DNA of 64,000 bases from Alphaproteobacteria bacterium (GTDB lineage Bacteria > Pseudomonadota > Alphaproteobacteria > UBA828): NCBI GenBank assembly GCA_965220825.1, contig OZ244839.1:3013280-3077279 (forward strand). The letters run 5' to 3'. Shown here in pieces: positions 1-56,082 of this stretch; positions within the stretch are counted from its first letter, which is position 1, and each line of letters opens with the position of its first letter. The notes beneath the pieces are model-generated. The model did not search any database and was not told where the DNA came from. It saw only the letters and a program-made list of their open reading frames with translations. A program made the position numbers and the translations under genes.

Positions 1-308
1 GGGTCGTGGATGGCCGGCAGGGTCTGGCTCAGCACCACATAGTCGAAGGCCGCGTCCGGGTAGTCGGCGAGGTCCGTGTCCGCATCGCCCTGGATGACCG
101 AAAGGCCGCGCCGTACGGAGGCGTTCACCCCCTCCTGGCCGATCTCGATGCCGCGCCCCTCCACCGCCTTCTCGCGGGCCAGCAGCTCCAGCAGCGCGCC
201 GTCGCCGCAGCCGACGTCGAGAAGCCTGGAGCGGGGCTCCACCATCTCGGCGATAAGGCGATGGTCGGGGCGGGCGCCGTCGCCTGGCGCCCTGCGGCGG
301 GCCGCCAT
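1..308 (-). CDS. metW: Methionine biosynthesis protein MetW (SAM-dependent methyltransferase-like). 5' part only; the gene continues beyond the window start.
   Basis: Reverse translation gives [58 protein letters not shown]..., containing the methyltransferase glycine motif LDVGCGDGALL typical of MetW. The ATG overlaps the metX stop (ATGA), which is the conserved metX-metW coupling. Confidence 0.6.
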   Translation of the reverse strand, partial: MAARRRAPGDGARPDHRLIAEMVEPRSRLLDVGCGDGALLELLAREKAVEGRGIEIGQEGVNASVRRGLSVIQGDADTDLADYPDAAFDYVVLSQTLPAIHD

Positions 309-1465
309 CAGCAGGGGAGCCCGCGCTTTTCGGCCGCGCCGGTGAGGAAGCCGCGCAGCGTCTCGAACATGTCGGGCTCGTCCAGCAGGAAGGCGTCGTG
401 GCCCTTGTCACTCACGACCTCGACGAAGCTCACATTGGCGGCGACGGCCGCCAGCGCCCGCACGACCGCCCGGTTCTCCGCCGTGGGATAGAGCCAGTCG
501 CTGGTGAACGAGATCACGCAGAAGCGCGAGCCGCAGCCCCGGAAGGCATTGGCCAGCACCCCGCCATGCTCCGCCGCCAGGTCGAAATAGTCCATCGCCC
601 GGGTGATGTAGAGATAGGAGTTGGCGTCGAAGCGTTCCACGAAGCTCCGCCCCTGGTGGCGCAGGTAGCTTTCCACCTGGAAGTCGGCGTCGAAGCCGTA
701 GGTGATGCTGGAGCGGTCCTGCAGGGAGCGGCCGAACTTGGTGTGCAGCGCGGGCTCCGAGAGATAGGTGATGTGGGCCGCCATGCGCGCCACCGCAAGG
801 CCGCGAACGGGGTTGGCTCCATGTTCGAGATAGCGCCCCTCGCGCCATTCCGGATCCGCCATGATCGCCTGGCGGCCCACCTCGTGGAAGGCGATGTTCT
901 GCGCGGACTGCCTGGCCGCACAGGCGATGGGTACCGCCGAAAAGCAGCGGTCGGGAAAGCTCGCGGCCCACTGCAGCACCTGCATGCCCCCCATGGAGCC
1001 GCCGGCGACGCAAAAGAGCTGTTCGATGCCGAGACTGTCGATCAGCATGGCCTGGGCCTTGACCATGTCGCGGATGGTGATGACCGGGAAGTCGAGGCCG
1101 TAAGCCCGCCCGGTTTCGGGGTTGGTCTCCTTGGGACCCACCGTTCCCATGCAGCCGCCCAGCACATTGGCGCAGATCACGAAATAACGGTCGGTGTCGA
1201 AGGGCCTGCCGGGGCCAACCATCAGCTCCCACCAGCCGGGCCTGCCGCTGACCGGATGGGGGCCGAGGACGAACTGGTCGCCGGTCAGTGCGTGGCACAG
1301 CAGCACGGCGTTGGAGCGCGCCGCGTTGAGCGTGCCGTAGGTCCGATAGGCGACCGTGAACGGCCCGAGCGTCACGCCGCAGTCGAGTTCGAGCGGAACC
1401 GTTCCGCCCAGTTCCACCCGGTGGTCGGACCCCTCGCCGGCCGCCGCCGTTGCGCTTACCTGCAT
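308..1465 (-). CDS. metX: Homoserine O-acetyltransferase.
   Basis: 385-aa ORF with alpha/beta-hydrolase MetX signatures (…[16 protein letters not shown]…); ATG at 1463-1465 on the minus strand. It lies upstream of metW, and metY is nearby. Confidence 0.9.
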
Positions 1466-1498
1466 GGAAGCAATGGTAGCACCGCCGTGGTGTCTTTT

Positions 1499-1561
1499 TT
1501 AGGTGCGCGGCTCTCCCGGCCCGCATGTTTCGTTGCCACCGCCGGAGAAGGGCCCCGGAGC
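1499..1561. repeat. Degenerate copy of the palindromic REP/MITE-like element (copy 1), inside the metX 5' leader.
   Basis: AGGTGCGCGGCTCTCCCGGCCCGCATGTTT matches the left arm of the copies at 8014 and 17455 with 2 mismatches. The right arm is decayed. It is preceded by a TTTTTT run. Confidence 0.4.
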
Positions 1562-1777: not shown

Positions 1778-2674
1778 ATGAACGAACGCTCGTCTACGGA
1801 TCCGCCGCTCGGCGCCTTGCGCGAAGAGATCGACGCGCTCGACCGGGCGATTCATGATCTTCTGATGCGCCGGATGGATGCCGCCGTCCGGGTCAGCGAG
1901 GCGAAGCGCGCCGCCGGCGTTTCCGGCACGCTGTTTCGCCCGGCGCGCGAAGCGGCCGTGTTGCGGCGCCTCGAAGCGCGCCACGAAGGTCCGTTCCCGT
2001 TTTCGGTGGTGGCGCGAATCTGGTGCGAGATCATGTCGGCCACCCTCACGGCGGAGGGGAGCTTCTCGGTCTCGGCGTTTACGCCCGAGGACACAATGGA
2101 GGGCCGCCGCTTCGCGGAGCTCGCGCGGGCCCATTTCGGTGCGCGAACCCCCATGGCCCAGACCCGTACCGAGAGCGGGGTGCTCCGGGCGGTCCGGGAC
2201 GGCAAGGTCTCTGTCGGCGTGCTGCCTCTGCCGGTGGATTCGCTCGGCGGCGACGCCGGCGTGAGCGCGGATCCCTGGTGGTTGACGCTGGCGGTGGGCG
2301 GCGATGCGCGGCCGGCGATCATCTCGCACCTGCCCTGGGTGGGCGAGGGCGCGCCGGTGGCGCTGGTGGTCGCCAATATTCCGCCGGAGCCCTCCGGCGA
2401 CGACATGTCGTTCCTGGCGCTTGAATCGACCGATTCGATCAGCCGTGACAGCATTCGTGCGGCATTCGCTGCGGTGGGGCTGGAAATGGCCCGCGGCATC
2501 GCCTGGCAGGGCCAGAGCGGTTCCGACGGCCGCTGGCAACTGATCGAGACCGCGGGCTTCGTCGCGGAGGGCGATTCGCGGCTCCAGGCGTTCGAGGAGC
2601 ATATGGGCGACGTCATCCTGCGTATCGTGCCGCTGGGCTGCCATCCCGTACCCCGCGCGACGCGGACGGACTGA
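1778..2674 (+). CDS. Chorismate mutase family protein (N-terminal AroQ-type CM domain; C-terminal domain of unknown function).
   Basis: N-terminus LGALREEIDALDRAIHDLLMRRMDAAVRVSEAKR is the AroQ chorismate-mutase helix motif. The gene sits immediately upstream of hisC-tyrC, as in many alphaproteobacteria. Confidence 0.7.
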   Translation: MNERSSTDPPLGALREEIDALDRAIHDLLMRRMDAAVRVSEAKRAAGVSGTLFRPAREAAVLRRLEARHEGPFPFSVVARIWCEIMSATLTAEGSFSVSAFTPEDTMEGRRFAELARAHFGARTPMAQTRTESGVLRAVRDGKVSVGVLPLPVDSLGGDAGVSADPWWLTLAVGGDARPAIISHLPWVGEGAPVALVVANIPPEPSGDDMSFLALESTDSISRDSIRAAFAAVGLEMARGIAWQGQSGSDGRWQLIETAGFVAEGDSRLQAFEEHMGDVILRIVPLGCHPVPRATRTD

Positions 2675-4737: not shown

Positions 4738-6108
4738 ATGTCCAGGGTACTCGGCGCCTCCGGCGAGACGGAGAAATATCTCAACCGCTTCATGGCGGGC
4801 GTCGAGAAGCGCAATCCCGGCGAGCCCGAATTCATCCAGGCGGTTCGCGAGGTCGCTTCCTCCGTCTTTCCCTATATCGCGGACAAGCCGCGCTATCACG
4901 AGATGCAGATTCTCGAGCGCATGGCGGAGCCGGACCGGGCGATCTTCTTCCGCGTGCCCTGGACGGACGACGAGGGGAACATCCGCAACAACCGGGGCTA
5001 CCGCGTGCAGTTCAACGGCGCGATCGGCCCCTACAAGGGCGGTATCCGCTTCCACCCCTCGGTCAATCTCAGCATCATGAAGTTTCTGGGCTTCGAGCAG
5101 ACCTTCAAGAACAGCCTCACCGGCCTACCCATGGGCGGCGGCAAGGGCGGCGCCAACTTCAACCCCAAGGGCAAGTCCGCGAACGAGGTCATGCGCTTCT
5201 GCCAGTCCTTCATCACCGAACTCCACCGGCATATCGGCGAAAACACGGACGTCCCGGCGGGCGATGTGGGGGTCGGCGAGCGCGAGATCGGCTTCATGTT
5301 CGGCCAGTACAGGCGGATCACCAACCGCTTCGTGGGCGTTCTCACGGGCAAGGGGCTTGCCTTCGGCGGGAGCCGGATGCGCACGGAGGCGACGGGCTAT
5401 GGCTGCGCCTACTTCATGGAGAACATGCTGAATCACGCGGGCGAGGGGATGCGGGGCAAGCGCTGCGCCATATCCGGCTCCGGCAATGTCGCGATCCATT
5501 GCGCCGAAAAAATTTTCCAGCTCGGGGGCACGCCGGTCACGCTCTCGGATTCCGGCGGCTTCATCCATGAGCCCCGCGGCTTCGACGACAAGGACCTCGA
5601 CTGGATCAAGGAGCTCAAGACCGTGCGCCGGGGCCGCATCGCGGACTATGCGGAGCGCTCCAAGACCGCGTCCTTCCATGAAGGGCGGCCCTGGGGCGTG
5701 CCCTGCGATCTCGCATTTCCCTGTGCCACCCAGAACGAACTGAGCGCCGAGGAGGGAAAGACCTTGATCGCGAACGGCGTGAAGGCCGTCTGCGAGGGCG
5801 CGAACATGCCCTGCGAGGAAGGCGCGGTCGAGGCCTTCATTCGGCACCGCATCCCCTTCGGGCCGGCGAAGGCCGCGAATGCCGGCGGCGTCGGCGTCTC
5901 AGGTCTCGAGATGAGCCAGAACAGCGCCCGTTACGCCTGGACCGACGAGACGGTTCACAACCATCTCACCGCCATGATGCGGAATATCCACGAATCCTGC
6001 GTCTCTTACGGAACGGACGATACGGGCTATGTGAACTATCTGAAGGGCGCCAATGTCGCGGGCTTCGTCAAGGTTGCGGACGCCATGCTGGCCTTCGGTC
6101 ACGTCTGA
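4738..6108 (+). CDS. gdhA: NADP-specific glutamate dehydrogenase.
   Basis: GDH signatures ([42 protein letters not shown]), collinear with E. coli GdhA. Start chosen at MSRVLG by alignment to the GdhA N-terminus; an alternative ATG lies at 4714. Confidence 0.9.
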
Positions 6109-6563
6109 CCGGTTCCGGTGGAGCCCAGGCCGCGCGCGCCGCGTTCGCTCTCGGGCAGCGCCGGGCATTCCGCGAGGCGGGCGCGTGCCGTCGGGGCCAC
6201 CACGAGCTGTGCGATCCGCGCGCCCCGCTCCACGGTGAAGGGCTGCTCGCCCAGATTGATCAGAAGGACGAAGAGTTCGCCCCGATAATCGGAATCGATC
6301 GTGCCCGGGCTGTTGAGCACGGTGACCCCGTGGGCGAGCGCGAGGCCGGAGCGCGGCCTGATCTGGGCCTCGTAGCCCGCCGGCAGCGCAAGCGCCAAGC
6401 CGGTCGGGATTTTCGCCCGCGCCAGCGGCGCGAGGCTGAGCGGCCCCGCGGCGGCGGGGAGGTCGAGGCCCGCGCTCCCGGCGGTCGCATAGGCCGGAAG
6501 CCGTAGATCCCGCCCGTGGGGGAGGCGCAGCAGCGGGACGGAAACCGGCGCCGGCGGGTTCAT
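6099..6563 (-). CDS. dut: dUTP diphosphatase.
   Basis: 154 aa; dUTPase motifs ([24 protein letters not shown]). Start MNPPAPVS chosen inside the longer ORF because the coaBC stop abuts it (the conserved dfp-dut order). Confidence 0.85.
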
Positions 6564-7810
6564 TCGCCCTCGGCCCCGGTTCCCAAGGTTCGGGCGACGC
6601 GTGCCGCCAGGCGTTCGGCCACCCGGGCCTTGCTCATGGCGGGCCAGGGCTCGTCGATGGGAGCCCCCGCCTCGCCGGTTCGTGCGAACAGGTGGATCCG
6701 GTTCTCGTCGCCGCCGAAGGTGCCGTCGTCCGGGCGCACCCGGTTGGCGAGGATCCAGTCGCACCCCTTGGCTGCGAGTTTGCGAGCGGCGTTCTCTGCG
6801 AGGTTCTCGGTCTCGGCGGCGAAGCCGATCACGAGGCGCGGGCGGTGTTCGCCGGGCGCGCTGAGCCGGGCGAGGATATCCGGGTTCCGGGCGAGGGCGA
6901 CGGAGGGTGCGCCGTCTTCGCGGGCGGCCATGGCGTCCGTCTTGAGCTTTTGCGCAGCGGTTTCGGCCGCGCGCCAGTCGGCGACGGCGGCTGCGCAGAC
7001 CGCGACATCCACCGGCAGGCCGCGCTCGCAGGCGGCCAGCATCTCTCGCGCGGTCTCCACGCGGACGGTCTCCACTCCCGCCGGCGGTGGCAGGGCGGTG
7101 GGGCCGGAGACCAGGAGGACCTGCGCACCGGCATCGGCGAAGGCCGCGGCGATGGCGTGCCCCTGCTTGCCCGAGGAGCGGTTGCCGAGAAAGCGCACCG
7201 GATCGATGGGCTCATAGGTGGGGCCGCTGGTGATGAGCGCCCGCACGCCCGCGAGCGGCCTTTCGACCCCGAGGCAGCTGGCGGCCGCCGCCAGAATCTC
7301 CCATGGCTCCGCCATCCGGCCCGGCCCGCTTTCGCCCTCCGCCAGCGGGCCGTCGCCCGGCCCCACGAAGCGCACGCCGTCGGCTGCAAGGCGTTCGCGG
7401 TTGCGCACCGTGGCCGGGTGCCGCCACATCCGCGTGTTCATGGCCGGCGCGGCGAGCACGGGCTTATCGGTCGCAAGCAGCGCGGCGGTCGCGAGATCGT
7501 CCGCAATACCGTGGGACATCTTGGCCAGAATATCGGCAGTGGCCGGCGCGACGATCACCAGATCCGTATCCCGCCCGAGCTGGATATGGCCGATCTCGCA
7601 CGCATCCGTCGGCGCGAAGAGGTCGGTAAAGACCTCTTCGCCCGCGAGCGTCGAGACGGAGAGCGGCGTCACGAACTCCGCGCCGGCGCGGGTCAGGATG
7701 CAGCGCACATGGACGCCCGCCTCCCGGAGCCTGCGGATCAGGTCCAGGCATTTATAGGCCGCGATACCGCCCGTGATCACGAGCAGCGCGCGCTTCCCGC
7801 GGAGGCTCAT
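6560..7810 (-). CDS. coaBC: Bifunctional phosphopantothenoylcysteine decarboxylase / phosphopantothenate-cysteine ligase.
   Basis: 416 aa; N-terminal flavoprotein motif [13 protein letters not shown]-terminal CoaB domain; classic coaBC-dut pairing. Confidence 0.9.
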
Positions 7811-8013
7811 CGGATGCCGTTCTCCCTGCGCCGCCGCCGGACTCTAATGCGGTTCCCCTTCCGATAGAACCGTTTGTCCGCCTTCAGGACCTTTGAGACG
7901 CTGGGGCTTCTTCGGCCGTCAGGTTGGCAAGCCATTCGGCCGGGGTTTGTCCGCCAAGGGCCTGGTCGGGTCTGATGGTAGCGAACGCGTCGGCCAAGGC
8001 GTCGACCTTTTTT

Positions 8014-8086
8014 GGTGCGCGGGTCTCCAGGCCCGCATTTTTCTTCTTCTCGAAAAACAAAAACATGCGGGCCTGGAGACCCGCGA
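8014..8086. repeat. Palindromic REP/MITE-like element (copy 2): 20-bp GC-rich arms around a 27-nt asymmetric loop.
   Basis: GCGGGTCTCCAGGCCCGCAT-(27 nt)-ATGCGGGCCTGGAGACCCGC, a perfect 20-bp inverted repeat. The loop is the reverse complement of the loop of copy 3 at 17455, so the two copies are in opposite orientation. Confidence 0.65.
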
Positions 8087-8100
8087 ACCGAACCTGTCAT

Positions 8101-8150
8101 GGGGTCTCCGAAGTTGTTGATGTGTCCACCGACCGCTTCGGAGATCCCCA
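8101..8150. repeat. Second strong hairpin (13-bp stem, 23-nt loop) immediately beside REP copy 2, in the coaBC/acyl-CoA-ligase divergent spacer.
   Basis: GGGGTCTCCGAAG…CTTCGGAGATCCCC seen directly in the sequence. Confidence 0.4.
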
Positions 8151-8284
8151 ACCCCGTTTCAAGAGCCACGTCTCATGCCTGTCTGATCGTGCACAGCCGA
8201 TCGGCGATTGAAGGACGGGGCGGCGTTGGCCATCATTCGCAATCCGGAACATCGGTGGAACCGGGATTACCGGTGGAGGCGCCC

Positions 8285-9910
8285 ATGGATGCCACGATGA
8301 TGGACTACCCGCTCACCCTCACCCACGTGCTGGAGAGGATGGGCGGCCCGCTGCGCGACAGCGAGATCGCCACCCGCCTGCCGGACAAGTCGATCCATCG
8401 CTACCGCTTCGGCGATTTGCATCTGCGCGCTCGCAGGCTCGCCTCCGCTCTTGCCCGTGCCGGGCTGAAGCGCGGCGAGGCGGTCGCCACCATGATGTGG
8501 AACAACTACCCGCATTACGAAGCCTATCTCGGAGTGCCCTGCGCGGGCGGGGTGCTGCATACGCTCAACTTCCGCCTCCATCCGGACGACCTCGTCCATA
8601 TCGCGAACCACGCCGAAGACCGTTTCGTGCTGGTGGACGATGTGCTGCTGCCGCTTTTCGAGAAGGTCCGGCCCCGGATCGGCGCGGAGCGGGTCTTCGT
8701 ATCGGCGCTCTCCGGCGCGCCCATAGCGGAGGGCTATGAGAGCTACGAGGCGCTGCTGGAGACGGGCGATCCCGACGACGACCTGCCGGCGCTGGAAGAG
8801 ACCGAGCCTTGCGGCATCTGCTACACCTCCGGCACCACCGGGCGGCCCAAGGGCGTGGTCTATTCCCACCGCGCCATGGTGCTGCACACCCTGGTGGAGT
8901 GCATGACGGAGCCGTTCGGCATCGCCCGCCGTGACAGCGTCATGCCGGTGGTGCCGATGTTCCACGCCAATGGCTGGGGCCTGCCCTATGCGGTGGCGCT
9001 CGCGGGCGCGCGCTGCGTCCTCCCCGGCCCCCATCTGGACCCGGTGAGCCTGCTCGATCTCTGTGCGGCGGAGCGGGTGACGCTCGCCGCCGGCGTGCCG
9101 ACCATCTGGAACGGCATCCTCCAGGCGCTGGATGCGGAGCCCGGGCGCTGGGCGCTGGACCCGGCCTTCCGCACCGTGGTGGGCGGCTCGGCCGCGGGAG
9201 AAGCCATGATCCGGGGCTTCGACCGGCACGGTATCGAGACCATCCACGCCTGGGGCATGACGGAGATGACCCCCATCGGCACGGCATCCACGGCGGATGC
9301 GGCGGCCCGCGTCGATGCCGACCCGGACGCCCGCTACCGCCGCCGCGCCCGCCAGGGCCCGGCCGTGCCCTTCGTCGAGCTGCGCCTGGTGAACGATGCC
9401 GGCCCCGCGCCCTGGGACGGTGAGACAATGGGCGAGCTCCAGGTGCGCGGGCCTTGGGTGGCCGCCCGCTACCGCCCGCCGGCGGACGCCGGCGACCGCT
9501 GGACCGCGGACGGCTGGCTCGTCACCGGCGATATCGCCACCATCGACGCGGAAGGCTTCATGAAGGTCACCGACCGCTCGAAGGACCTGATCAAGTCCGG
9601 CGGCGAGTGGATCAGCTCGGTGGACCTCGAGAACGCGCTGATGGGCCACGCCGCCGTAAAGGAGGCCGCGGTCATCGCCATCCCCGACGAGAAGTGGGAC
9701 GAGCGCCCGCTCGCCGTGGTGGTCTGGAAGGAGGGCGCCGCGGCGGACACGGCGGAGCTCACCGCCCACTTGGCCACCCGCTTCGCCAAATGGTGGCTCC
9801 CCAACGCTTACGTCTTCATCGACGAAATCCCCCGCACCTCGACGGGGAAGTTTCTGAAGTCCGCCCTGCGCGAGCGCTATGCCGGCGGGGCGGGGAGTGG
9901 CGAGGGGTGA
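8285..9910 (+). CDS. Long/medium-chain fatty-acid-CoA ligase (AMP-forming acyl-CoA synthetase family).
   Basis: AMP-binding motifs (YTSGTTGRPKGVVYSH; TGDIATIDAEGFMKVTDRSKDLIKSGGEWIS). Start taken at the ATG at 8285 (MDATMMDYPL); the track ORF from 8012 is an upstream artefact that runs through the REP element. Confidence 0.85.
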   Translation: MDATMMDYPLTLTHVLERMGGPLRDSEIATRLPDKSIHRYRFGDLHLRARRLASALARAGLKRGEAVATMMWNNYPHYEAYLGVPCAGGVLHTLNFRLHPDDLVHIANHAEDRFVLVDDVLLPLFEKVRPRIGAERVFVSALSGAPIAEGYESYEALLETGDPDDDLPALEETEPCGICYTSGTTGRPKGVVYSHRAMVLHTLVECMTEPFGIARRDSVMPVVPMFHANGWGLPYAVALAGARCVLPGPHLDPVSLLDLCAAERVTLAAGVPTIWNGILQALDAEPGRWALDPAFRTVVGGSAAGEAMIRGFDRHGIETIHAWGMTEMTPIGTASTADAAARVDADPDARYRRRARQGPAVPFVELRLVNDAGPAPWDGETMGELQVRGPWVAARYRPPADAGDRWTADGWLVTGDIATIDAEGFMKVTDRSKDLIKSGGEWISSVDLENALMGHAAVKEAAVIAIPDEKWDERPLAVVVWKEGAAADTAELTAHLATRFAKWWLPNAYVFIDEIPRTSTGKFLKSALRERYAGGAGSGEG

Positions 9911-9966
9911 GGGGGGGGGTGGTGGAGTGAGTGGTTCGAGGTGGCTACGAAAATAAGGGGTGACCG

Positions 9967-10818
9967 ATGAGCGATATTACTCAGATAATTATTGAGAAGT
10001 GCAAGGAGCTCGAGCGAACCGATCGGGAATGCATCGAGCTATCATACGAATCGAAAACGCCTCACAGCAAAGAGGAGATTAGAAGTTATATTTCGGAACT
10101 GATGGGGGTTTGTGCCAGAGCGTTTGAACTCAAGAACGATATACAGATGCTTCTACGCCAGGAAAGTAATCTGAAAATACACGACGCCAGCCTCTCAAAT
10201 CTTATTCGAAAAATCAGAAACGACGAGGAATTCTATTCGATAACTCAGTATGAAGTAATTGCGTCGTTATTCAACACGAAGGCTGATGAATCTTCTGGAG
10301 TTTGGGAAATGGATTCCGATGATTTCATTTTTCAGCACCCCGATGCTTTCCAGGATTTCCATGGTGAGGTGGACTACGTGAAGTATTTCACGCGTTCGAT
10401 GAAGGTCGGGGGGTTGATTTCTCAACGGAGCGTACCGGACACCGCATTGGCGTATTTTCAGGAAATCCGCGACAGCTTCAGTTTCGGTCTCTACAGATCA
10501 GCAATCGCGCTATGCCGGGCGATGCTGGAAACCGTGTTCTTCGATACGTTGAAGCGACGGAACTACTTGAATGCTGGTGGATCGAAGGTGGTCAAGATCG
10601 ATCTCGCAAAGGAAGATCGCCTTTTTCGAATGATCAAGGATGCATACAGTAAGCGCGTTATCGACTACGACACCAAGGAGGATGCGTTCTTTGTTAAGAA
10701 GCAGGCAAATACAATTGTTCTTCACGCTAAGGATTCGCAACCCGAGATCACGGAGGAGGTCGCATTCGACGTGATTCAGAGAACCATTCGAGTGATTGAA
10801 CGATTGTATTCGACATAG
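9967..10818 (+). CDS. Orphan AT-rich hypothetical protein (283 aa). The C-terminal ~110 aa are DUF4145/HEPN-like helical; a candidate singleton defence/abortive-infection or toxin protein.
   Basis: GC about 40% against about 69% in the flanks. Good SD (AAGGGG) 6 nt upstream of the ATG. Clean 283-aa ORF with no overlap. C-terminal pattern A..LCRAMLE…LFRMIKDAYSKRVID…KKQANTIVLHAK…ITEEVAFDVIQRTIRVIERLY. No homologue recognised for the N-terminal 150 aa. Confidence 0.75.
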   Translation: MSDITQIIIEKCKELERTDRECIELSYESKTPHSKEEIRSYISELMGVCARAFELKNDIQMLLRQESNLKIHDASLSNLIRKIRNDEEFYSITQYEVIASLFNTKADESSGVWEMDSDDFIFQHPDAFQDFHGEVDYVKYFTRSMKVGGLISQRSVPDTALAYFQEIRDSFSFGLYRSAIALCRAMLETVFFDTLKRRNYLNAGGSKVVKIDLAKEDRLFRMIKDAYSKRVIDYDTKEDAFFVKKQANTIVLHAKDSQPEITEEVAFDVIQRTIRVIERLYST

Positions 10819-10885
10819 GTTTTCGCTTGGTCACGGCTGAGGATCTTCGGTTCGAATCAGAGAGTTTTTATATGCTCGTCTAAAC

Positions 10886-12126
10886 TGTACAGATAGGGTA
10901 ATCGCCTGACAGTCGCCGCTCCCGGGGGTTTGGTTCAGGCGGCCTTTTTCATCTTCTCCTCCTTTGGGGTTTTGGGTTTTGGCAAGCATCGGACGAAAGC
11001 GTCCGCGGGCGTCCTTCCGTTCATGCCGCGGCCCTGGTGGGGGCGCTCGGTATTGTAGCGGACAAGGTAGGCGTCCAGGTCTTTCTGCATGGTCTTGATG
11101 CTGTCGTAGAACTTCTTGCGCCCCATGACGCGGAAGTGCTCGTCGAGCAGGGCGCGGTGCAGGCGCTCGACGAAGCCGTTGGACTGGGGCCTGCGGACCT
11201 TGGTGGTGCGGTGCTCGATCTCCTCAAGCTGGAGGAACAGCTCGTAGGGGTGGCGATCGGGCCGGCCGCAGAACTCCCGACCGTTGTCGCTCAGCACGGT
11301 CTCGATCCGGGCGCCGTGGGCCTCGAAGGTGGGCAGCACGTCGTTGTTCATCAGGTGGACTGCGGTGACCGGCATCTTGTTGGGGTAGAGCCTGCCCCAG
11401 GCGTAGCGCGAGTGGCAGTCGACGGCGGTCTGCAGGTAGACCTTCCCGACCCCCTTGAGATGGCCGACGAAGAAGGTGTCCACGGCCACCAGGTCGCCGG
11501 TGTACCGGGTCTTGATGTGGCGCTCGCGGAACTCCGGTGAGAAGCGCTCCAACAGACGAACCTGTTCGCCGGAGAGCTCGATCCGGCGCTCGGCCGTGCT
11601 CTTCTCCAGCCGGAGCAGACGTTCCTGCTTGGTCAGCAGCTTATGGCGCGACCACACCCCGCGCACCCCGCCGGAAGACACGTGGATGCCCTTGAGCGAC
11701 AGCTCCTGGGCAACCCGCAATGCGCCGTGGGTGGGGTGGTCCAGCGCGTGCGCCAGGATCGCCTTCTCGACCTCCTGCGACACCCGGTTGGGATGCGGCC
11801 CGCGGGCGCCGGGAAGCCGGTCGATCAGACCCTCCGCTCCGTAGGTCTGGTAGTTCCTGCGGATCTCGTAGAACTGCTGGCGCGAGTAGCCCATGATCCG
11901 GCACGCCTTCGATACATTGTTCATCTCGCCCGCCAGCTCCAGCAGGCTCAGCTTGCGCCGTGCTATCTTGTCTTTGGTGGTCATGTCGTTCTCCCGGTCG
12001 GTCGGATGTTGTGCAAAACAATCCTTAACCCTATCGGGAGCGGCTTGGCCACCGCCGGCGCGCTCGACTCGTGACGGTCGCGCGCCCGCGGCGGCCAAAC
12101 TGTCAGGTGATTACCGTCTCACCACA
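10886..12126 (-). mobile_element. Complete IS481-family insertion sequence (1241 bp) with imperfect 28-bp terminal inverted repeats, flanked by a 7-bp target-site duplication TCTAAAC.
   Basis: Left end TGTACAGATAGGGTAATCGCCTGACAGT; reverse complement of the right end TGTGGTGAGACGGTAATCACCTGACAGT (22/28 identical, both beginning TGT). Direct repeats TCTAAAC at 10879-10885 and 12127-12133. Single transposase ORF inside. Confidence 0.8.
10935..11984 (-). CDS. IS481-family transposase (DDE integrase core).
   Basis: 349 aa from MTTKDKIARRKLSLLELAG… (N-terminal HTH), with an rve-type catalytic core (…HLKGVGKVYLQTAVDCHSRYAW…LSDNGREF…ERLHRAL…). The ORF-track start at 12098 is an in-frame upstream extension. 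Confidence 0.85.
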   Translation of the reverse strand: MTTKDKIARRKLSLLELAGEMNNVSKACRIMGYSRQQFYEIRRNYQTYGAEGLIDRLPGARGPHPNRVSQEVEKAILAHALDHPTHGALRVAQELSLKGIHVSSGGVRGVWSRHKLLTKQERLLRLEKSTAERRIELSGEQVRLLERFSPEFRERHIKTRYTGDLVAVDTFFVGHLKGVGKVYLQTAVDCHSRYAWGRLYPNKMPVTAVHLMNNDVLPTFEAHGARIETVLSDNGREFCGRPDRHPYELFLQLEEIEHRTTKVRRPQSNGFVERLHRALLDEHFRVMGRKKFYDSIKTMQKDLDAYLVRYNTERPHQGRGMNGRTPADAFVRCLPKPKTPKEEKMKKAA

Positions 12127-12288
12127 TCTAAACAGCACGACGAACAGTGCGCACCAGCGATGTAGCCCTTCTACGAGAAGATCGTCGCCGAGCGGCAGGT
12201 GGAGCAGGATCGCCGCTTGCGCGACATCAAGCGCCACGAGGCGCCGACCGGTTCTATCTGGAAGAAGACGTGCGCTTTATCGACGCAC

Positions 12289-12327
12289 AGAAAAAGGCCG
12301 CCGGAGAGGTTCTCCAACGGCCTTTCT
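12289..12327 (-). terminator. Rho-independent terminator of tRNA-Asn.
   Basis: On the minus strand, 7 nt downstream of the tRNA 3' end: GGCCGTTGGAGAACCTCTCCGGCGGCC hairpin followed by TTTTTCT. Confidence 0.5.
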
Positions 12328-12333
12328 GTGAAC

Positions 12334-12409
12334 TGGCTCCCCGGGCCGGACTCGAACCAGCGACCCAGCGGTTAACAGCCGCTTGCTCTACCAACTGAGC
12401 TACCGGGGA
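12334..12409 (-). tRNA. tRNA-Asn (anticodon GTT), CCA encoded.
   Basis: Reverse complement folds as a cloverleaf: acceptor TCCCCGG/CCGGGGA, D-arm GCTCAGTTGGTAGAGC, anticodon loop CTGTTAA, T-arm GGTTCGAGTCC, 3' GCCA. Confidence 0.9.
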
Positions 12410-15519: not shown

Positions 15520-15983
15520 CCGATTTCCCAGATGGATTCGAGTTCCACAGGGGCGCCCAGCGGCAGCGCCGTGGCCCCGATGGCCACCCGCGAGTGTCGG
15601 CCCGCCTCGCCGAATATCTCGGCGATCAGGTCCGATGCGCCGTTGACCACGGCGGGCTGGTCGGTGAAGTCCGGGCCGCAGGCGACATAGCCGGTCAACC
15701 GCAGGCAGCGCACGACCCGGTCCAGATCGCCTTCGCAGGCCGCCTTGAGCTGGGCGAGCACATTGAGGGCGCAGAGGCGGGCGACCGCCTGCCCGCCCGC
15801 CAGGTCATATTCCTGGCCGAGCCGCCCACGGTGGCGGAGCTCCCCCGCCTCAAGGGGGATCTGCCCGGATATGAACACCTGATTGCCGCCGACCGTGTAG
15901 GGGACATAGGACCCCACGGGCGCCGGTGCCGCGGGAAGCGCAATGCCGAGCGCCGCAAGCCGGTTGTCTATTCGCCCCGCCAT
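15516..15983 (-). CDS. RidA/YjgF-family reactive-intermediate deaminase.
   Basis: 155 aa from MAGRIDNRLAALGI…; Rid-family core (…YVPYTVGGNQVFISGQIP…). The track ORF from 16148 is an upstream extension. Confidence 0.8.
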   Translation of the reverse strand: MAGRIDNRLAALGIALPAAPAPVGSYVPYTVGGNQVFISGQIPLEAGELRHRGRLGQEYDLAGGQAVARLCALNVLAQLKAACEGDLDRVVRCLRLTGYVACGPDFTDQPAVVNGASDLIAEIFGEAGRHSRVAIGATALPLGAPVELESIWEIG

Positions 15984-16125
15984 CGCTCGTTCCTCCGCGT
16001 TTGCCGGTCGCTCCGAAGATACAGGCGCAGGGCGAGGGGAGCCAGGACGGCGCGCCGCCCCGCCGGGGAAGAGACGGGCCGGGAGTCCTGCTATAACCGC
16101 GGCGTTAACTGAAAGGCGGCTCCCG

Positions 16126-17421
16126 ATGGCCGATACGACCTCCTTCAAGCCGGATACGTTGAGCCTGCATGCCGGGCAGAGGCCGGATCCGGCGACCGGC
16201 GCGCGCGCGGTGCCGATCTACCAGACCACGTCCTATGTGTTCGACGATACGGACCACGCGGCGTCGCTCTTCAACCTGGAGCGCGCGGGCCATATCTATT
16301 CGCGCATCTCCAACCCGACGGTCGCCGTCCTGGAGGAGCGTCTGGCCGCCCTCGAAGGCGGCGTCGGCGCGGTCTGCACGGCGAGCGGGCAGGCGGCGCT
16401 TCATCTCGGGGTCGCGACACTGACGGGCGCAGGCGGGCATATCGTCTCGTCCGCTTCGCTCTATGGCGGCAGTCACAATCTGTTCGTCCACACCCTGCCG
16501 CGCTTCGGTATCGAGACCACCCTGGTGGACCCGCGGGATACGGAGGGCTTCCGCCGTGCCATCCGGCCCGAGACCCGCCTCGTCTTCGGCGAGACCCTCG
16601 GCAATCCGGGCCTCGAGATCATGGACCTGCCGGCGGTCGCGGCGCTCGCCCATGAGGCCGGCATACCGCTGATGATCGACAACACCTTCGCCACGCCCTT
16701 CCTGTTCCGCCCCATCGCCCACGGCGCCGACATCGTGATGCATTCGGTCACCAAGTTTCTCGGCGGCCACGGCACCGCCATCGGCGGCGCCCTGGTGGAT
16801 GCCGGCACCTTCGACTGGGAGGGCTCGGACAGGTTCCCGACACTCACCGAGCCCTATGCCGGCTATCACGGCATCGATTTCGCGGAGGAGTTCGGGCCCG
16901 GGGCCTTCATCGCCCGGGCGCGGGCGGAGGGGCTGCGCGATTTCGGCGCCTGCCTGAGCCCCTTCAATGCGTTCCAGATCCTCCAGGGCGTGGAGAGCCT
17001 GCCGGTTCGCATGGCGCGCCATGTGGAGAACGCCCGCAGGATCGCCGCCTATCTGGAAGGCCACGACGCCGTCTCCTGGGTGAGCCATCCCGACCTCCCC
17101 TCCCATCCGGACCATGCGCGGGCGCAGGTCCTGCTCCCAAAGGGTGCGGGTGCCGTCTTCTGCTTCGGCGTAAAGGGCGGGCGCGCGGCGGGGCGCGCCT
17201 TCATCGAGGCGGTGGAGCTGCTCTCCCATCTCGCCAATGTGGGCGACGCCAAGAGCCTGGTAATCCACCCCGCCAGCACCACCCATCAGCAGATGGACGC
17301 GGCCTCTCTCGCAGCGGCCGGCGTCGGCGAAGACATGGTCCGGCTCTCAATCGGCCTCGAGGACCCGGAGGACCTCATCGCCGACCTCGAACGTGGCCTG
17401 AAGGCGGCGTCACGCGCCTGA
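16126..17421 (+). CDS. metY: O-acetylhomoserine aminocarboxypropyltransferase (sulfhydrylase).
   Basis: 431 aa; Cys/Met-metabolism PLP enzyme with the PLP-lysine region SVTKFLGGHGTAIGG; collinear with MetY/MetZ; consistent with metX in this window. Confidence 0.9.
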   Translation: MADTTSFKPDTLSLHAGQRPDPATGARAVPIYQTTSYVFDDTDHAASLFNLERAGHIYSRISNPTVAVLEERLAALEGGVGAVCTASGQAALHLGVATLTGAGGHIVSSASLYGGSHNLFVHTLPRFGIETTLVDPRDTEGFRRAIRPETRLVFGETLGNPGLEIMDLPAVAALAHEAGIPLMIDNTFATPFLFRPIAHGADIVMHSVTKFLGGHGTAIGGALVDAGTFDWEGSDRFPTLTEPYAGYHGIDFAEEFGPGAFIARARAEGLRDFGACLSPFNAFQILQGVESLPVRMARHVENARRIAAYLEGHDAVSWVSHPDLPSHPDHARAQVLLPKGAGAVFCFGVKGGRAAGRAFIEAVELLSHLANVGDAKSLVIHPASTTHQQMDAASLAAAGVGEDMVRLSIGLEDPEDLIADLERGLKAASRA

Positions 17422-17454
17422 TGCGCGCCGAAGTGGCGTTTGAAGTGGGTTTTT

Positions 17455-17533
17455 TAGGTGCGCGGGTCTCCAGGCCCGCATGTTTTTGTTTTTCGAAGGG
17501 AAGGAAAAATGCGGGTCTGGAGACCCGCGCACC
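17455..17533. repeat. Palindromic REP/MITE-like element (copy 3): 26-bp arms, 28-nt loop, flanked by a T6 run and an A6 run.
   Basis: AGGTGCGCGGGTCTCCAGGCCCGCATG-(loop GTTTTTGTTTTTCGAAGGGAAGGAAAAA)-ATGCGGGTCTGGAGACCCGCGCACCT; one mismatch between the arms. Located in the metY / amidohydrolase spacer. Confidence 0.65.
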
Positions 17534-17639
17534 TAAAAAAGGGCGACGCGTCGGGGCGGCGTGCGATTGAACGGGGCGGGCGGGCGGCCTACACTGCGCC
17601 TTGCCACGGACATGAAATGAGCGGGGGGAGGCCCCAACG

Positions 17640-18941
17640 ATGGCAGAGACACTCTTCAAAAACGTGTCGATCTTCGACGGCAAGGCCAAGCGCCCCTATG
17701 CGGGCGAGGTTCTGCTCCAGGGCAATCTCATCAAGAAGGTCGCCAAGGGCAAAGGCAAGATCAGGGCCAACGGCGCGACGGTGGTGGACGGTGCCGGCGC
17801 GACCCTGATGCCCGGCCTCATCGAGCCCCATTCCCACGTCTGCTACACCGACTGCGCGAGCCTGCCCGAGATCGGGCGGCTTACGCCGGAAGAGCATATG
17901 GTGCTCGCGCTGGAGAACGCGAAGAAGATGCTCGATCAGGGTTTCACGAGCCTCTTCTCGGCCGCGGGCGTCGGCTACAACAAGCTCCGCATCGAGCCGG
18001 TGCTGCGGGACGTGATCAACGCCGGACGCTATCCCGGACCGCGGCTCAAGGCGGCCTCGCCCGAGATCGTCTCCTCCGGCGGGCTCGGCGACGAGCGGCA
18101 GTTCCACATGCATCACGAATCGGTGGGCTACATCGCCGACGGGCCGGACGAGGTCCGCAAGGCCTGCCGCATCTGCATTCGTGAAGGCGTGGACAACATC
18201 AAGCTCAATATCTCGGGCGACGAGTTCGCCCATCCTGGCCAGTCCGAGAAGATCACCTATTTCGACGCCGAAGTGGCGGCGGCGGTCGAGGTGGCGCGGG
18301 AGGCCGGGGTGAACATCTGCACCCACGCCCGGGCCGACAAGGCGGTGCGGCTCGCGCTCAAACACGGTATCGACGTGATCTATCACGCGGACTACGCGAC
18401 CGACGAAACCATCGACATGCTCGAGGAAAAGAAAGACCAGATCTTCCTCGCGCCGGCGATCGGCGTCGTCTACACCACCGCCTACGAAGCCGCCGACTGG
18501 GGCATCACCCGGGAAGTCGCGGAGAGCTACAACCTCTTCTACAAGATGGAGCACACCGTGCGCACCTACAAGGAGGTGCGCAAGCGCGGCATCCGGGCCA
18601 TGCCGGGCGGCGATTACGGCTTCGCGTGGAACCCCATCGGCACCAACGCCCGGGATCTGGAGCACTTCGTCAATCTGTTCGGCTATTCGCCGGCCGAGGC
18701 GCTGATCGGGGCCACCAAGTGGGGCGGCGAGCTCATGGAGCTCAATGTGGGCATGGTCAAGGAGGGCTACCTGGCCGACCTGCTGCTGGTGGACGGCGAC
18801 CCCACCAAGGACGTGTCGATCATGATGGATTCCGACAATCTGCTGATGATCATGAAGGACGGCGCGTACCACAAGGCGCCGGACGAGGCGCGTCTCGCCG
18901 GGCGCCGGCAGATCGTGGCCGCCCCGGCCGCGGCGGAGTAG
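17640..18941 (+). CDS. Amidohydrolase-family metal-dependent hydrolase.
   Basis: 433 aa; N-terminal metal-binding HSH motif (LIEPHSHVCYT) and a later HADYATD motif, typical of the amidohydrolase superfamily. Confidence 0.85.
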   Translation: MAETLFKNVSIFDGKAKRPYAGEVLLQGNLIKKVAKGKGKIRANGATVVDGAGATLMPGLIEPHSHVCYTDCASLPEIGRLTPEEHMVLALENAKKMLDQGFTSLFSAAGVGYNKLRIEPVLRDVINAGRYPGPRLKAASPEIVSSGGLGDERQFHMHHESVGYIADGPDEVRKACRICIREGVDNIKLNISGDEFAHPGQSEKITYFDAEVAAAVEVAREAGVNICTHARADKAVRLALKHGIDVIYHADYATDETIDMLEEKKDQIFLAPAIGVVYTTAYEAADWGITREVAESYNLFYKMEHTVRTYKEVRKRGIRAMPGGDYGFAWNPIGTNARDLEHFVNLFGYSPAEALIGATKWGGELMELNVGMVKEGYLADLLLVDGDPTKDVSIMMDSDNLLMIMKDGAYHKAPDEARLAGRRQIVAAPAAAE

Positions 18942-30184: not shown

Positions 30185-30220
30185 GGGCCGTTGCCGCCGG
30201 CGAGTCGCCGGTCGGCCGCC

Positions 30221-30943
30221 TCAATACATGTGGGTGCCGCCGTTCATGGTGATGGTCGAGCCCGTGGTCCAGGCCGCCTTCTCGTCCACCAGAAAGAGCA
30301 CCGCGTGGGCGACCTCCTCCTCCGCGCCCATTCGGCGGATCGGCGACTTGTCGAGAATCTTCTCGAGGATGCGCTCAGGCATCTCGCGCATCAACTCCGT
30401 GTCCACATAGCCCGGTGCGACGGTGTTCACCGTGATGCCGTGCTTTGCGCCTTCCAGCGCGAGCGCCTTGGTGAAGCCGTGCATGCCGGCCTTCGCGGCC
30501 ACATAGTTGACCTGATTGCGCTGGCCCGCCTGGCCGTTCATGGAGCCGATCTGGACGATCCGTCCCCAGCCGCGTTCCATCATGCCGGGATAGACCACCT
30601 TCGACATGTGGAAGACCGAATCCAGATTCACCCGTACCACGCGCTCCCACTGCGCGTCCGTCATATTCTCGAACCGGTTGTCGGAGACGGTGCCGGCGTT
30701 GTTCACCAATATCTCCACGGGACCCGACGCCGCCTCCACCGCCGCGACGCCTTCGCGGCAGGCGGCACCGTCGCTCACGTCCCAGCGAAAGGCGGGGATG
30801 CCGGTTGCGCGGGTGAAGGATTCGGCGTCCTCGTCGTTCGCGTGATAGTTGACGGCGACGTCATAGTTCGCCGCCTGAAGCGCACGTGCGATCGCCGCGC
30901 CGATGCCGCGCGTCCCGCCGGTGATCAGGGCGAGTCTTGCCAT
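30221..30943 (-). CDS. phaB: Acetoacetyl-CoA reductase (paralogue 1).
   Basis: 240 aa from MARLALITGGTRGIG…; NNAG and YxxxK (YVAAK) SDR motifs; C-terminal NGGTHMY; about 55% identical to the adjacent paralogue. Confidence 0.85.
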   Translation of the reverse strand: MARLALITGGTRGIGAAIARALQAANYDVAVNYHANDEDAESFTRATGIPAFRWDVSDGAACREGVAAVEAASGPVEILVNNAGTVSDNRFENMTDAQWERVVRVNLDSVFHMSKVVYPGMMERGWGRIVQIGSMNGQAGQRNQVNYVAAKAGMHGFTKALALEGAKHGITVNTVAPGYVDTELMREMPERILEKILDKSPIRRMGAEEEVAHAVLFLVDEKAAWTTGSTITMNGGTHMY

Positions 30944-31004
30944 TGGTTCGCTCCGTTGGGGTTGTTTCCTGTGGCGAGGGATCGGGCGGCTTGGTGCCGC
31001 CGCG

Positions 31005-31727
31005 TCAATACATGTGGTGACCGCCATTCACCGAGAGCGTGGAGCCGGTGATGAAGTCCGCATCGTCCGCCACCAGGAAGAGCACCGCGCGGGCGATGTC
31101 CGCGGCGCGGCCCAGCCGGCCCACCGGGATGCTTGCGACGATCTTGTCCAGCACCTCCGCAGGCACCGCGCGCACCATTTCCGTATCCACATAGCCCGGC
31201 GCGACGGCGTTGACGGTGATGCCGTGGCGCGCGCCTTCCTGGGCCAGAGCCTTGGTGAAGCCGTGGATGCCCGACTTTGCGGCGGCGTAGTTGACCTGTC
31301 CGTACTGCCCCGCCTGTCCGTTGATAGAGCCGATATTGACGATCCGCCCGAACTTGCGGGTGCGCATCCCGGGAAAGGCCGTATGGCAGGTGTTGAAGCA
31401 GGAGCCCAGATTGGTGTCCAGCACCGATTGCCAGCTTTCCGGCGTCATCTTCTGGATCGTCCCGTCCCGGGTGATACCGGCATTGTTGACCACGATGTCG
31501 ATCGGCCCGATCTCCGTCTCGATCGTCTCCATGCCGCTGCGGCATGCCTCTGCGTCCGCGACGTCCCACTTGTAGACCGGGATCCCCGTTTCCGCTTGGA
31601 AGCGTTCCGCCGCCGCGTCGTTTGCGTGATAGTTGGCGGCGACCCGGTAGCCGGCCTCCTTGAGCGCCCGGGAGATTGCGCCGCCGATCCCGCGCGTCCC
31701 GCCCGTGACGAGCGCAACCCGTGCCAT
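31005..31727 (-). CDS. phaB: Acetoacetyl-CoA reductase (paralogue 2).
   Basis: 240 aa from MARVALVTGGTRGIG…; the same motif set; C-terminal NGGHHMY; tandem with paralogue 1. Confidence 0.85.
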   Translation of the reverse strand: MARVALVTGGTRGIGGAISRALKEAGYRVAANYHANDAAAERFQAETGIPVYKWDVADAEACRSGMETIETEIGPIDIVVNNAGITRDGTIQKMTPESWQSVLDTNLGSCFNTCHTAFPGMRTRKFGRIVNIGSINGQAGQYGQVNYAAAKSGIHGFTKALAQEGARHGITVNAVAPGYVDTEMVRAVPAEVLDKIVASIPVGRLGRAADIARAVLFLVADDADFITGSTLSVNGGHHMY

Positions 31728-55584: not shown

Positions 55585-56082
55585 GCGTGTTCCGCCCGTT
55601 CGTACCGGCGCGCACACTATGTCACGCACCCCCGCCGAACAACTCCCCGTCCCGCTGCGGGCGATGGGAGACGGAAATACCCTGCGCTGCGTAAGTGCTT
55701 TCTGAGGCTCGTTGTCGTGCGGATAGCGATCGACGAGCCCGACTCCGCCTATTTTTTCGCGGCTCGTTCAGGCCGTCGGTTCGTCGGAAAGACGAGCCTC
55801 GGAAACAACCATGGGTGTTCAGGAAGTTTCAAAATACCGTTTTCGTCGCACAGTGGAACGAATGGCGGGCGGTCTTCACGAACGCGAAGTTTTCCTCACG
55901 AAGAACGAGATCGATTGTCTAACCGTTTGTGCGATTCAAAAGGCGCGGTTGAAAGGTCGAAATCACCACTTCACGGTTCGCCAAGCACGCAAAAGGACGA
56001 ACGGGTGCATGTGTCAAGAGGCGTATGTGGTTCCCGCGATGGTGCGCGCTCCGAAAGAATGCGGGCGGTGCGCGGCGCGACC

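Follow-up and report, generated by a model that had tools for sequence, protein, structure and literature searches.

This locus raises the question of what kind of element the palindromic sequence found repeatedly between the genes of an uncultured alphaproteobacterium is, and how it came to lie there more than once. The window denotes the whole stretch of DNA that was analysed (64 kb). A first-pass annotation made from the letters alone had described a REP- or MITE-like family of palindromic intergenic elements with two intact copies in opposite orientation and two decayed ones, and had proposed a potential bidirectional terminator at one of the intact copies. We find that a unit of ~90 bp, its spacer included, occurs twice in unrelated intergenic regions and in opposite orientations, together with one solo arm:

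1496..1530 (+): copy 1, a solo arm (REP singlet) reading T6-A-GGTGCGCGGCTCTCCCGGCCCGCATGTTT, 50.7 bits with the arm model
8008..8092 (-): copy 2, an intact doublet, inverted relative to copy 3; recognised by its inverted repeats, its folding and 90.6% identity to copy 3
17450..17540 (+): copy 3, an intact doublet consisting of T6-A, the left arm, a 27-nt asymmetric spacer (GTTTTTGTTTTTCGAAGGGAAGGAAAAA), the right arm and T-A6

The two intact copies lie where they were first reported, with slightly larger true extents once the T and A runs are included. The 22-nt arm core (GCGCGGGTCTCCAGGCCCGCAT) has five matches at ≤3 mismatches in the window compared with none in 100 dinucleotide-preserving shuffles, and the same five arms were recovered at 46-56 bits when the whole window was searched with an arm covariance model without filters, the next best match having an E-value of 0.13. 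Nine 16-mers occur three times in the 64-kb window, and all of them come from this repeat, from its two doublets and one singlet. Aligned as reverse complements, copies 2 and 3 are 90.6% identical over 96 nt (E 4e-31), a stretch within which the 27-nt spacer lies, so the spacer was duplicated along with the arms; aligned in the same orientation, they are only 82.8% identical. Because of this difference, the doublet can be said to have a direction and to occur both ways round, as had been claimed. The inverted repeat of copy 3 has 36-nt arms that are 94% complementary, and the two doublets together span arms of 36-41 nt with 83-94% complementarity around a spacer of ~27 nt. The right arm of copy 2 is diverged at its outer end (GGTTCGCGG) and has no A run, and the greatest divergence by mismatches in this sample of three copies is that of the solo arm (2 in 22).

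The two copies described as decayed fared less well. The left arm of copy 1 is genuine, with the mismatches and score given above, but its decayed right half is not: the region 1536-1580 reaches a local score of 6 against a background of 6.5 and holds instead an unrelated perfect hairpin that is unique in the window. Because this region is unlike a right arm, copy 1 has to be read as a solo arm. The fourth proposed copy, a collapsed remnant at 56041-56075, could not be distinguished from chance. It was missed by the unfiltered arm covariance model even at E≤10, folds no better than shuffles (z -0.1 and +1.4) and has an alignment score to copy 3 that is reached by 1.8% of random 61-mers from the window; the co-occurrence of GGTGCGCG and ATGCGGG that marks it is expected about 0.4 times by chance, as estimated from motif counts. 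Three of the four proposed copies therefore stand, one of them only as a solo arm.

All three sites lie between Pfam-supported genes, in agreement with the claim that the copies are intergenic. The flanking genes, each identified by Pfam, are the following:

308-1465 (-): metX-like ORF; its start is 31 nt from the solo arm, which lies upstream
1778-2674 (+): chorismate mutase gene; the solo arm lies 248 nt upstream
6560-7810 (-): coaBC, divergent neighbour of copy 2
8285-9910 (+): acyl-CoA synthetase gene, divergent neighbour of copy 2
15943-17421 (+): gene for a MetY-like Cys/Met-metabolism PLP enzyme; its stop lies 29 nt before copy 3
17640-18941 (+): amidohydrolase gene; begins 100 nt past the end of copy 3

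Copy 2 is about 195 nt from the start of each of its divergent neighbours. The genes around copy 3 are co-directional, and its first hairpin begins 41 nt past the stop of the MetY-like gene. The open reading frames 7807..8169 and 17375..17689, which had been pointed out as spurious, do exist over the elements; for annotation, the elements should be masked or labelled as repeats, as they create such ORFs.

What the first-pass annotation had missed is that each arm is a hairpin in its own right and that the element is hence a doublet of two REPs. Within an arm, T6(A)GGTGC leads into a 7-bp GC stem with a 4-nt loop (GCGGGTC-TCCA-GGCCCGC, about -13 kcal/mol), after which come GCAT and a T-rich tail directed towards the spacer; read directly, the arm is AGGTGC-GCGGGTCTCCAGGCCCGC-ATG. 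A doublet is thus made of two inverted REP-type units of ~30 nt, placed tail to tail with the asymmetric spacer between them. Because the two arms are inverted hairpins, the unit is a REP-type doublet that matches a REPIN or BIME in anatomy and size. The individual hairpins and the terminator-like modules that they form with their tails are listed here:

17462-17479 (+): left-arm REP hairpin of copy 3, GCGGGTC-TCCA-GGCCCGC, -13.3 kcal/mol
17462..17494 (+): left-arm hairpin of copy 3 with tail ATGTTTTTGTTTTT; terminator-like module for plus-strand transcripts from the MetY-like gene
17528-17511 (-): right-arm REP hairpin of copy 3, GCGGGTC-TCCA-GACCCGC, -13.9 kcal/mol, z -3.4
17497..17528 (-): right-arm hairpin of copy 3 with tail ATTTTTCCTTCCC; terminator-like module for minus-strand transcripts
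8019..8036 (+): REP hairpin of a copy 2 arm, followed by ATTTTTCTTCTTC; terminator-like site by consensus
8067..8084 (-): REP hairpin of a copy 2 arm, followed by ATGTTTTTGTTTTT; terminator-like site by consensus

The arm hairpins of the doublets all fall between -13.3 and -13.9 kcal/mol, and the hairpin of the solo arm is weakened by a C.C mismatch. Folding, which had been suggested as a check, returned both whole doublets as long hairpins of -57 to -71 kcal/mol with z-scores of -9 to -12 (-71.1 kcal/mol and z -11.1 for copy 3, -57 to -58 kcal/mol for copy 2). According to these predictions, a doublet can adopt either of two alternative folds, two small hairpins or one long hairpin.

The arm is not confined to this window. 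In a genome scan of one genome per species, the source genome not being among them, 21 loci were found. The same arm occurs at 5, 2 and 2 loci in three Alphaproteobacteria MAGs, one of which (OZ251509.1) is among the closest relatives by CoaBC (74% identity), and one Alphaproteobacteria MAG locus (L016) carries a doublet with a similar purine-rich spacer. Strict arm matches in related MAGs amount to only 2-5 per 3.5 Mb, and none was found in the 62 kb around coaBC of three relatives. Gammaproteobacteria MAGs contain related doublets with the arm GGTGCGCGG-N10-CCGCAT, in which the two arms share the frame GGTGCGCGG...CCGCAT and differ in their stems. The metagenome scan, for which the hairpin and tail served as query, yielded 42 loci that are mostly doublets built on the arm GGACCGCGGGCCTCCAGGCCCGCATCTTT, and at some of these other palindromes are nested in the REP hairpin loop or in the spacer.

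Among 89 arms, 98.7% of the stem cells are paired, 24 double-sided changes were counted compared with 3.9 in shuffles, and three of the seven pairs covary, figures that come with the caveat that the alignment was fitted to the arm model. The hairpin within the arm has thus been kept by compensatory changes across the wider family. Because pairing and covariation were found on these 89 arms, what is conserved is the intra-arm hairpin, including the CTCCAG loop, together with its flanks; the T-rich tail is missing from most arms in related MAGs (L002, L008, L012, L016 and L020), in which hairpin and flanks are conserved. The collection scans therefore revealed both a wider family and a structured, covarying consensus, and the initial description of a REP-like palindromic intergenic family is borne out. 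Family sites are mostly intergenic, with 12 in convergent, 20 in co-directional and 6 in divergent positions as judged with a crude gene caller. At 55 loci, the 103 flanking ORFs represent 162 different Pfam families, none of which is found in more than two of the 103 ORFs.

Several wider-family loci show rearrangements of their own. Palindromes are inserted in the REP hairpin loop at L039 (about 770-900) and L057 (about 4827-4939), the insert at L039 containing the tetranucleotide GTAG, and at L028, L049 and L058 the spacer harbours a doublet of a second type (GGGAGCGCGCCACTCC...GGCGCATCTTT). At L059 (3599-3884), four arms stand in tandem with a period of ~80 nt. A family member in the metagenome locus L024 adjoins a hairpin that carries a GTAG tag and shares the CTCCAG loop, a sequence arrangement that hints at a distant link to GTAG-tagged REPs.

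Other assemblies of the same organism agree with the window. Two ENA metagenome contigs that are 99.9-100% identical to it carry every copy within their span, and no presence/absence polymorphism was seen in these two assemblies for the copies that they cover. The closest relatives have a CoaBC that is 73-77% identical and keep the run coaBC-dut-PALP-ThiF-AIRS, of which the window shares only coaBC-dut; the gene order upstream of coaBC is unlike that of any relative examined, and with synteny broken no orthologous intergenic site for comparison was present among the closest relatives. BLAST searches of plasmids returned no match to a window doublet or to a metagenome doublet, viral contigs contained no match to the element, and a full-text search of papers for the hairpin sequence gave irrelevant matches only.

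Taken as a whole, the element is probably a short, dispersed, non-coding repeat, namely a REP doublet of REPIN/BIME type. As in the REP/BIME system of E. coli, which has incidental roles in mRNA 3′-end stabilisation and termination, the hairpins are GC-rich and extragenic and occur singly, in inverted pairs and in clusters. REPs of E. coli bear a 5′ GTAG tag and are recognised and cleaved by RayT (TnpA-REP) (PMC3733652), and in this the window arms are unlike them, having GGTG at the GTAG position. CGTC-type REPs are predominant in Alphaproteobacteria, apparently without a dedicated transposase, and head-to-head dimers are common in the tagged superfamilies (Di Nocera et al. 2013, PMC3733652). 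With the GTAG and CGTC superfamilies the window arms share the character of small palindromic repeats, but direct reading of either strand finds neither tag in them.

The closest parallel in anatomy is offered by REPINs, which are two inverted REPs with a spacer and measure 89 bp in P. fluorescens SBW25 (PMC3337134); they form a long hairpin and are accompanied by decaying singlets and by clusters (Bertels and Rainey, PMC3337134). Their REPs are flanked by A/T runs that lie outside or inside the doublet depending on its configuration, the outside runs having been read as co-option for termination (PMC3337134). The window element resembles the REPINs of SBW25 and other bacteria (Bertels & Rainey 2011; PMC3116915, PMC3337134) in its length of ~90 bp, its near-perfect long hairpin and its extragenic position, and likewise in having solo REPs as remnants, A/T runs beside the REPs, tandem clusters in the wider family and no target duplication. 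Unlike the REPINs of Pseudomonas fluorescens SBW25, it has an unrelated REP sequence and an uncultured alphaproteobacterial host, no flanking or nearby RAYT was found in the sequence examined, and three copies were seen in 64 kb.

Beyond the observed duplication and the conserved hairpin, we infer both an enzyme and a role in termination. In the most likely mechanism, the doublet would spread as a unit through a single-stranded hairpin intermediate, with a RAYT-type HUH/Y1 transposase as the enzyme that acts in trans and has its gene at another place in the genome; the same has been proposed for REPINs. Spread driven by such an enzyme would leave no target duplication, and solo arms would represent remnants in decay. 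An effect on transcripts would be incidental: those arriving from either side would run into a GC hairpin (-13 kcal/mol) with a U-rich tract behind it, so that the element could act as two face-to-face intrinsic terminators or as a protector of 3′ ends. Judged by its position and predicted fold, copy 3 probably serves as terminator of the MetY-like gene, a role that annotation should record as likely.

REPINs "are almost always found flanking RAYT genes" (PMC5581495), and one RAYT group has been reported to be rare in Alphaproteobacteria (PMC5581495). An HUH/Tyr motif scan of the window and related loci (roughly 0.4 Mb) detected no RAYT/Y1 transposase, and a phmmer search found no homologue of E. 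coli RayT (from NC_000913.3) in 4228 six-frame ORFs of the same sequences; these searches cover only about 2% of the 3.28-Mb source genome. No RAYT was seen adjoining family members at about 60 loci. Because of this and because palindromes are inserted exactly in the hairpin loop, we also considered a reading that we regard as quite unlikely, namely that arms of this type, with GG-NN-C ahead of a GC hairpin whose loop is CTCCAG and with GCAT and a T-rich tail behind it, define a REP superfamily distinct from the GTAG and CGTC classes and are mobilised by means other than a classical RAYT. Such a superfamily would be common to uncultured Alpha- and Gammaproteobacteria and to the bacteria represented in public metagenome contigs. 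If this were true, the element would be a sign of a mobilisation system that targets hairpins and has gone unrecognised. As a REP doublet of known type, it is a real but ordinary bacterial repeat and an alphaproteobacterial addition to the REP/REPIN catalogue, with an arm that lacks the usual GTAG and CGTC tags; the missing tags matter only if the complete genome has a large population of copies, or no RAYT.

That the elements are primarily bidirectional intrinsic terminators or insulators under selection, and that their similarity reflects the reuse of one good cassette and not selfish spread, is unlikely in our judgement, although part of the evidence agrees with it. Like intrinsic (Rho-independent) bidirectional terminators, the element has on each strand a GC hairpin with a T run behind it. 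The classical form consists of a single hairpin between an A run and a T run, whereas the element has two hairpins face to face, and its outer runs are the opposite of the classical ones (T6...A6): they read T6-stem-A6 on either strand, which is the wrong polarity for a terminator. The bidirectional terminator that the first-pass annotation derived from these brackets therefore falls on polarity; the terminator-like modules are instead the arm hairpins with the inner T-rich spacer. Because the inner T runs, which face each other, have the right polarity, all four doublet arms meet the terminator consensus, so that on both strands a hairpin of -13 kcal/mol is followed by a correctly placed T-rich tract. 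In addition, the hairpin of copy 3 starts 41 nt past a stop codon, and many sites of the wider family abut gene 3′ ends, with convergent sites outnumbering divergent ones by 12 to 6. Placement within the window is less favourable: copies 1 and 2 lie between divergent genes and so find nothing there to terminate, which leaves copy 3 as the only one of the three downstream of a gene. Most arms in related MAGs do without the T-rich tail, yet conserve hairpin and flanks, the nested insertions and tandem arrays of the wider family are repeat behaviour, and 90% identity including the spacer requires duplication of the unit, whatever its use. 

MITEs such as Correia elements are short, non-autonomous elements with inverted ends, and RIME and the Sm-repeats of rhizobia are intergenic mosaic palindromic repeats of ~100 bp, RIME occurring in Alphaproteobacteria; the likeness of the window element to RIME and Correia elements is one of description only. 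Derivation from an IS by deletion, with a DDE transposase (for example the IS481-family enzyme encoded at 10935-12098) acting on the terminal inverted repeats for mobilisation, would suit its ~90-bp length, its intergenic position and inverted arms that reach the element ends, and an IS481-family transposase is indeed present in the window, where a possible rve remnant also abuts copy 2. We nevertheless consider this very improbable, and the MITE label given at first reading is not supported: direct target duplications were seen at none of the three copies, a BLAST comparison of the copy 2 region with the whole window matched only the other copies and neither the ends of the IS481-family element nor anything else there, the conserved, covarying hairpin inside each arm is a feature of REPs and not of terminal inverted repeats, and the IS481-family transposase occurs at this one place only in the assemblies read. 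The position of copy 1 beside metX and of copy 3 beside the metY-like gene, so that two of the three copies adjoin methionine-pathway genes, and a predicted structure that is very stable would suit a small RNA or a cis-regulatory RNA that exists in several copies and is connected with sulfur amino-acid genes; we rate this reading as extremely improbable. At the gathering threshold, Rfam 15 assigned three tRNAs to the window and no family to the element, and at E-value thresholds it returned only matches to eukaryotic miRNA precursors, far below the gathering threshold, as expected of generic long hairpins. No promoter-like site was found at the copies, which lie both ways round and in differing positions relative to the genes (5′ of metX, 3′ of metY), and the flanking ORFs of the wider family show no enrichment among their unrelated Pfam families. 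On account of this diversity of flanking genes, a gene-specific regulator was rejected.

Copies 2 and 3 are inverted relative to each other, 90% identical over ~90 bp and 9.4 kb apart, and could mediate inversion of the enclosed segment. No alternative arrangement of the segment between them was seen; an independent 5.9-kb metagenome contig (L023) stops 26 nt past copy 2. Between the two inverted copies lies an islet of low GC content (9950-12409; GC 0.44-0.50 compared with 0.68 for the window) whose appearance is that of a small piece of foreign DNA inserted next to a tRNA gene. It contains a 283-aa ORF (9967-10818, +) with no match in Pfam, NCBIfam or PADLOC, which adjoins the IS481-family transposase gene (10935-11984/12098, -) and tRNA-Asn (12334-12409, -).

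A 60-aa ORF (7884-8010, -), for which a metagenome contig likewise has a gene call, directly abuts copy 2. Over its C-terminal part (KKVDALADAFATIRPDQALGGQTPAE) it is similar to the C-terminal end of rve-type transposases, with an E-value of 0.003 to the window's IS481-family transposase in BLASTP and of 0.19 to Pfam rve_3, which is below the cutoff; judged by this similarity, the ORF may be an IS remnant.

Short hairpins at 1479-1500 and 7989-8013, just upstream of copies 1 and 2, borrow the T6 run of the element and score as terminator-like on the plus strand. Because no plus-strand gene lies upstream of them, they are probably due to chance. In the spacer between metX and the chorismate mutase gene, 20 nt past the solo arm, the perfect 8-bp hairpin GAGAAGGGCCCCGGAGCCCTTCTTGG (1545-1570) has a sequence unrelated to the arm, although the CCGGAG of its loop is reminiscent of CTGGAG in right arms. 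The window's longest direct repeat (30215-31298) extends over 300 nt at 74% identity and belongs to two adjacent paralogous genes:

30221-31027 (-): first of the adjacent paralogous genes with the 300-nt repeat
31005-31727 (-): second of these genes
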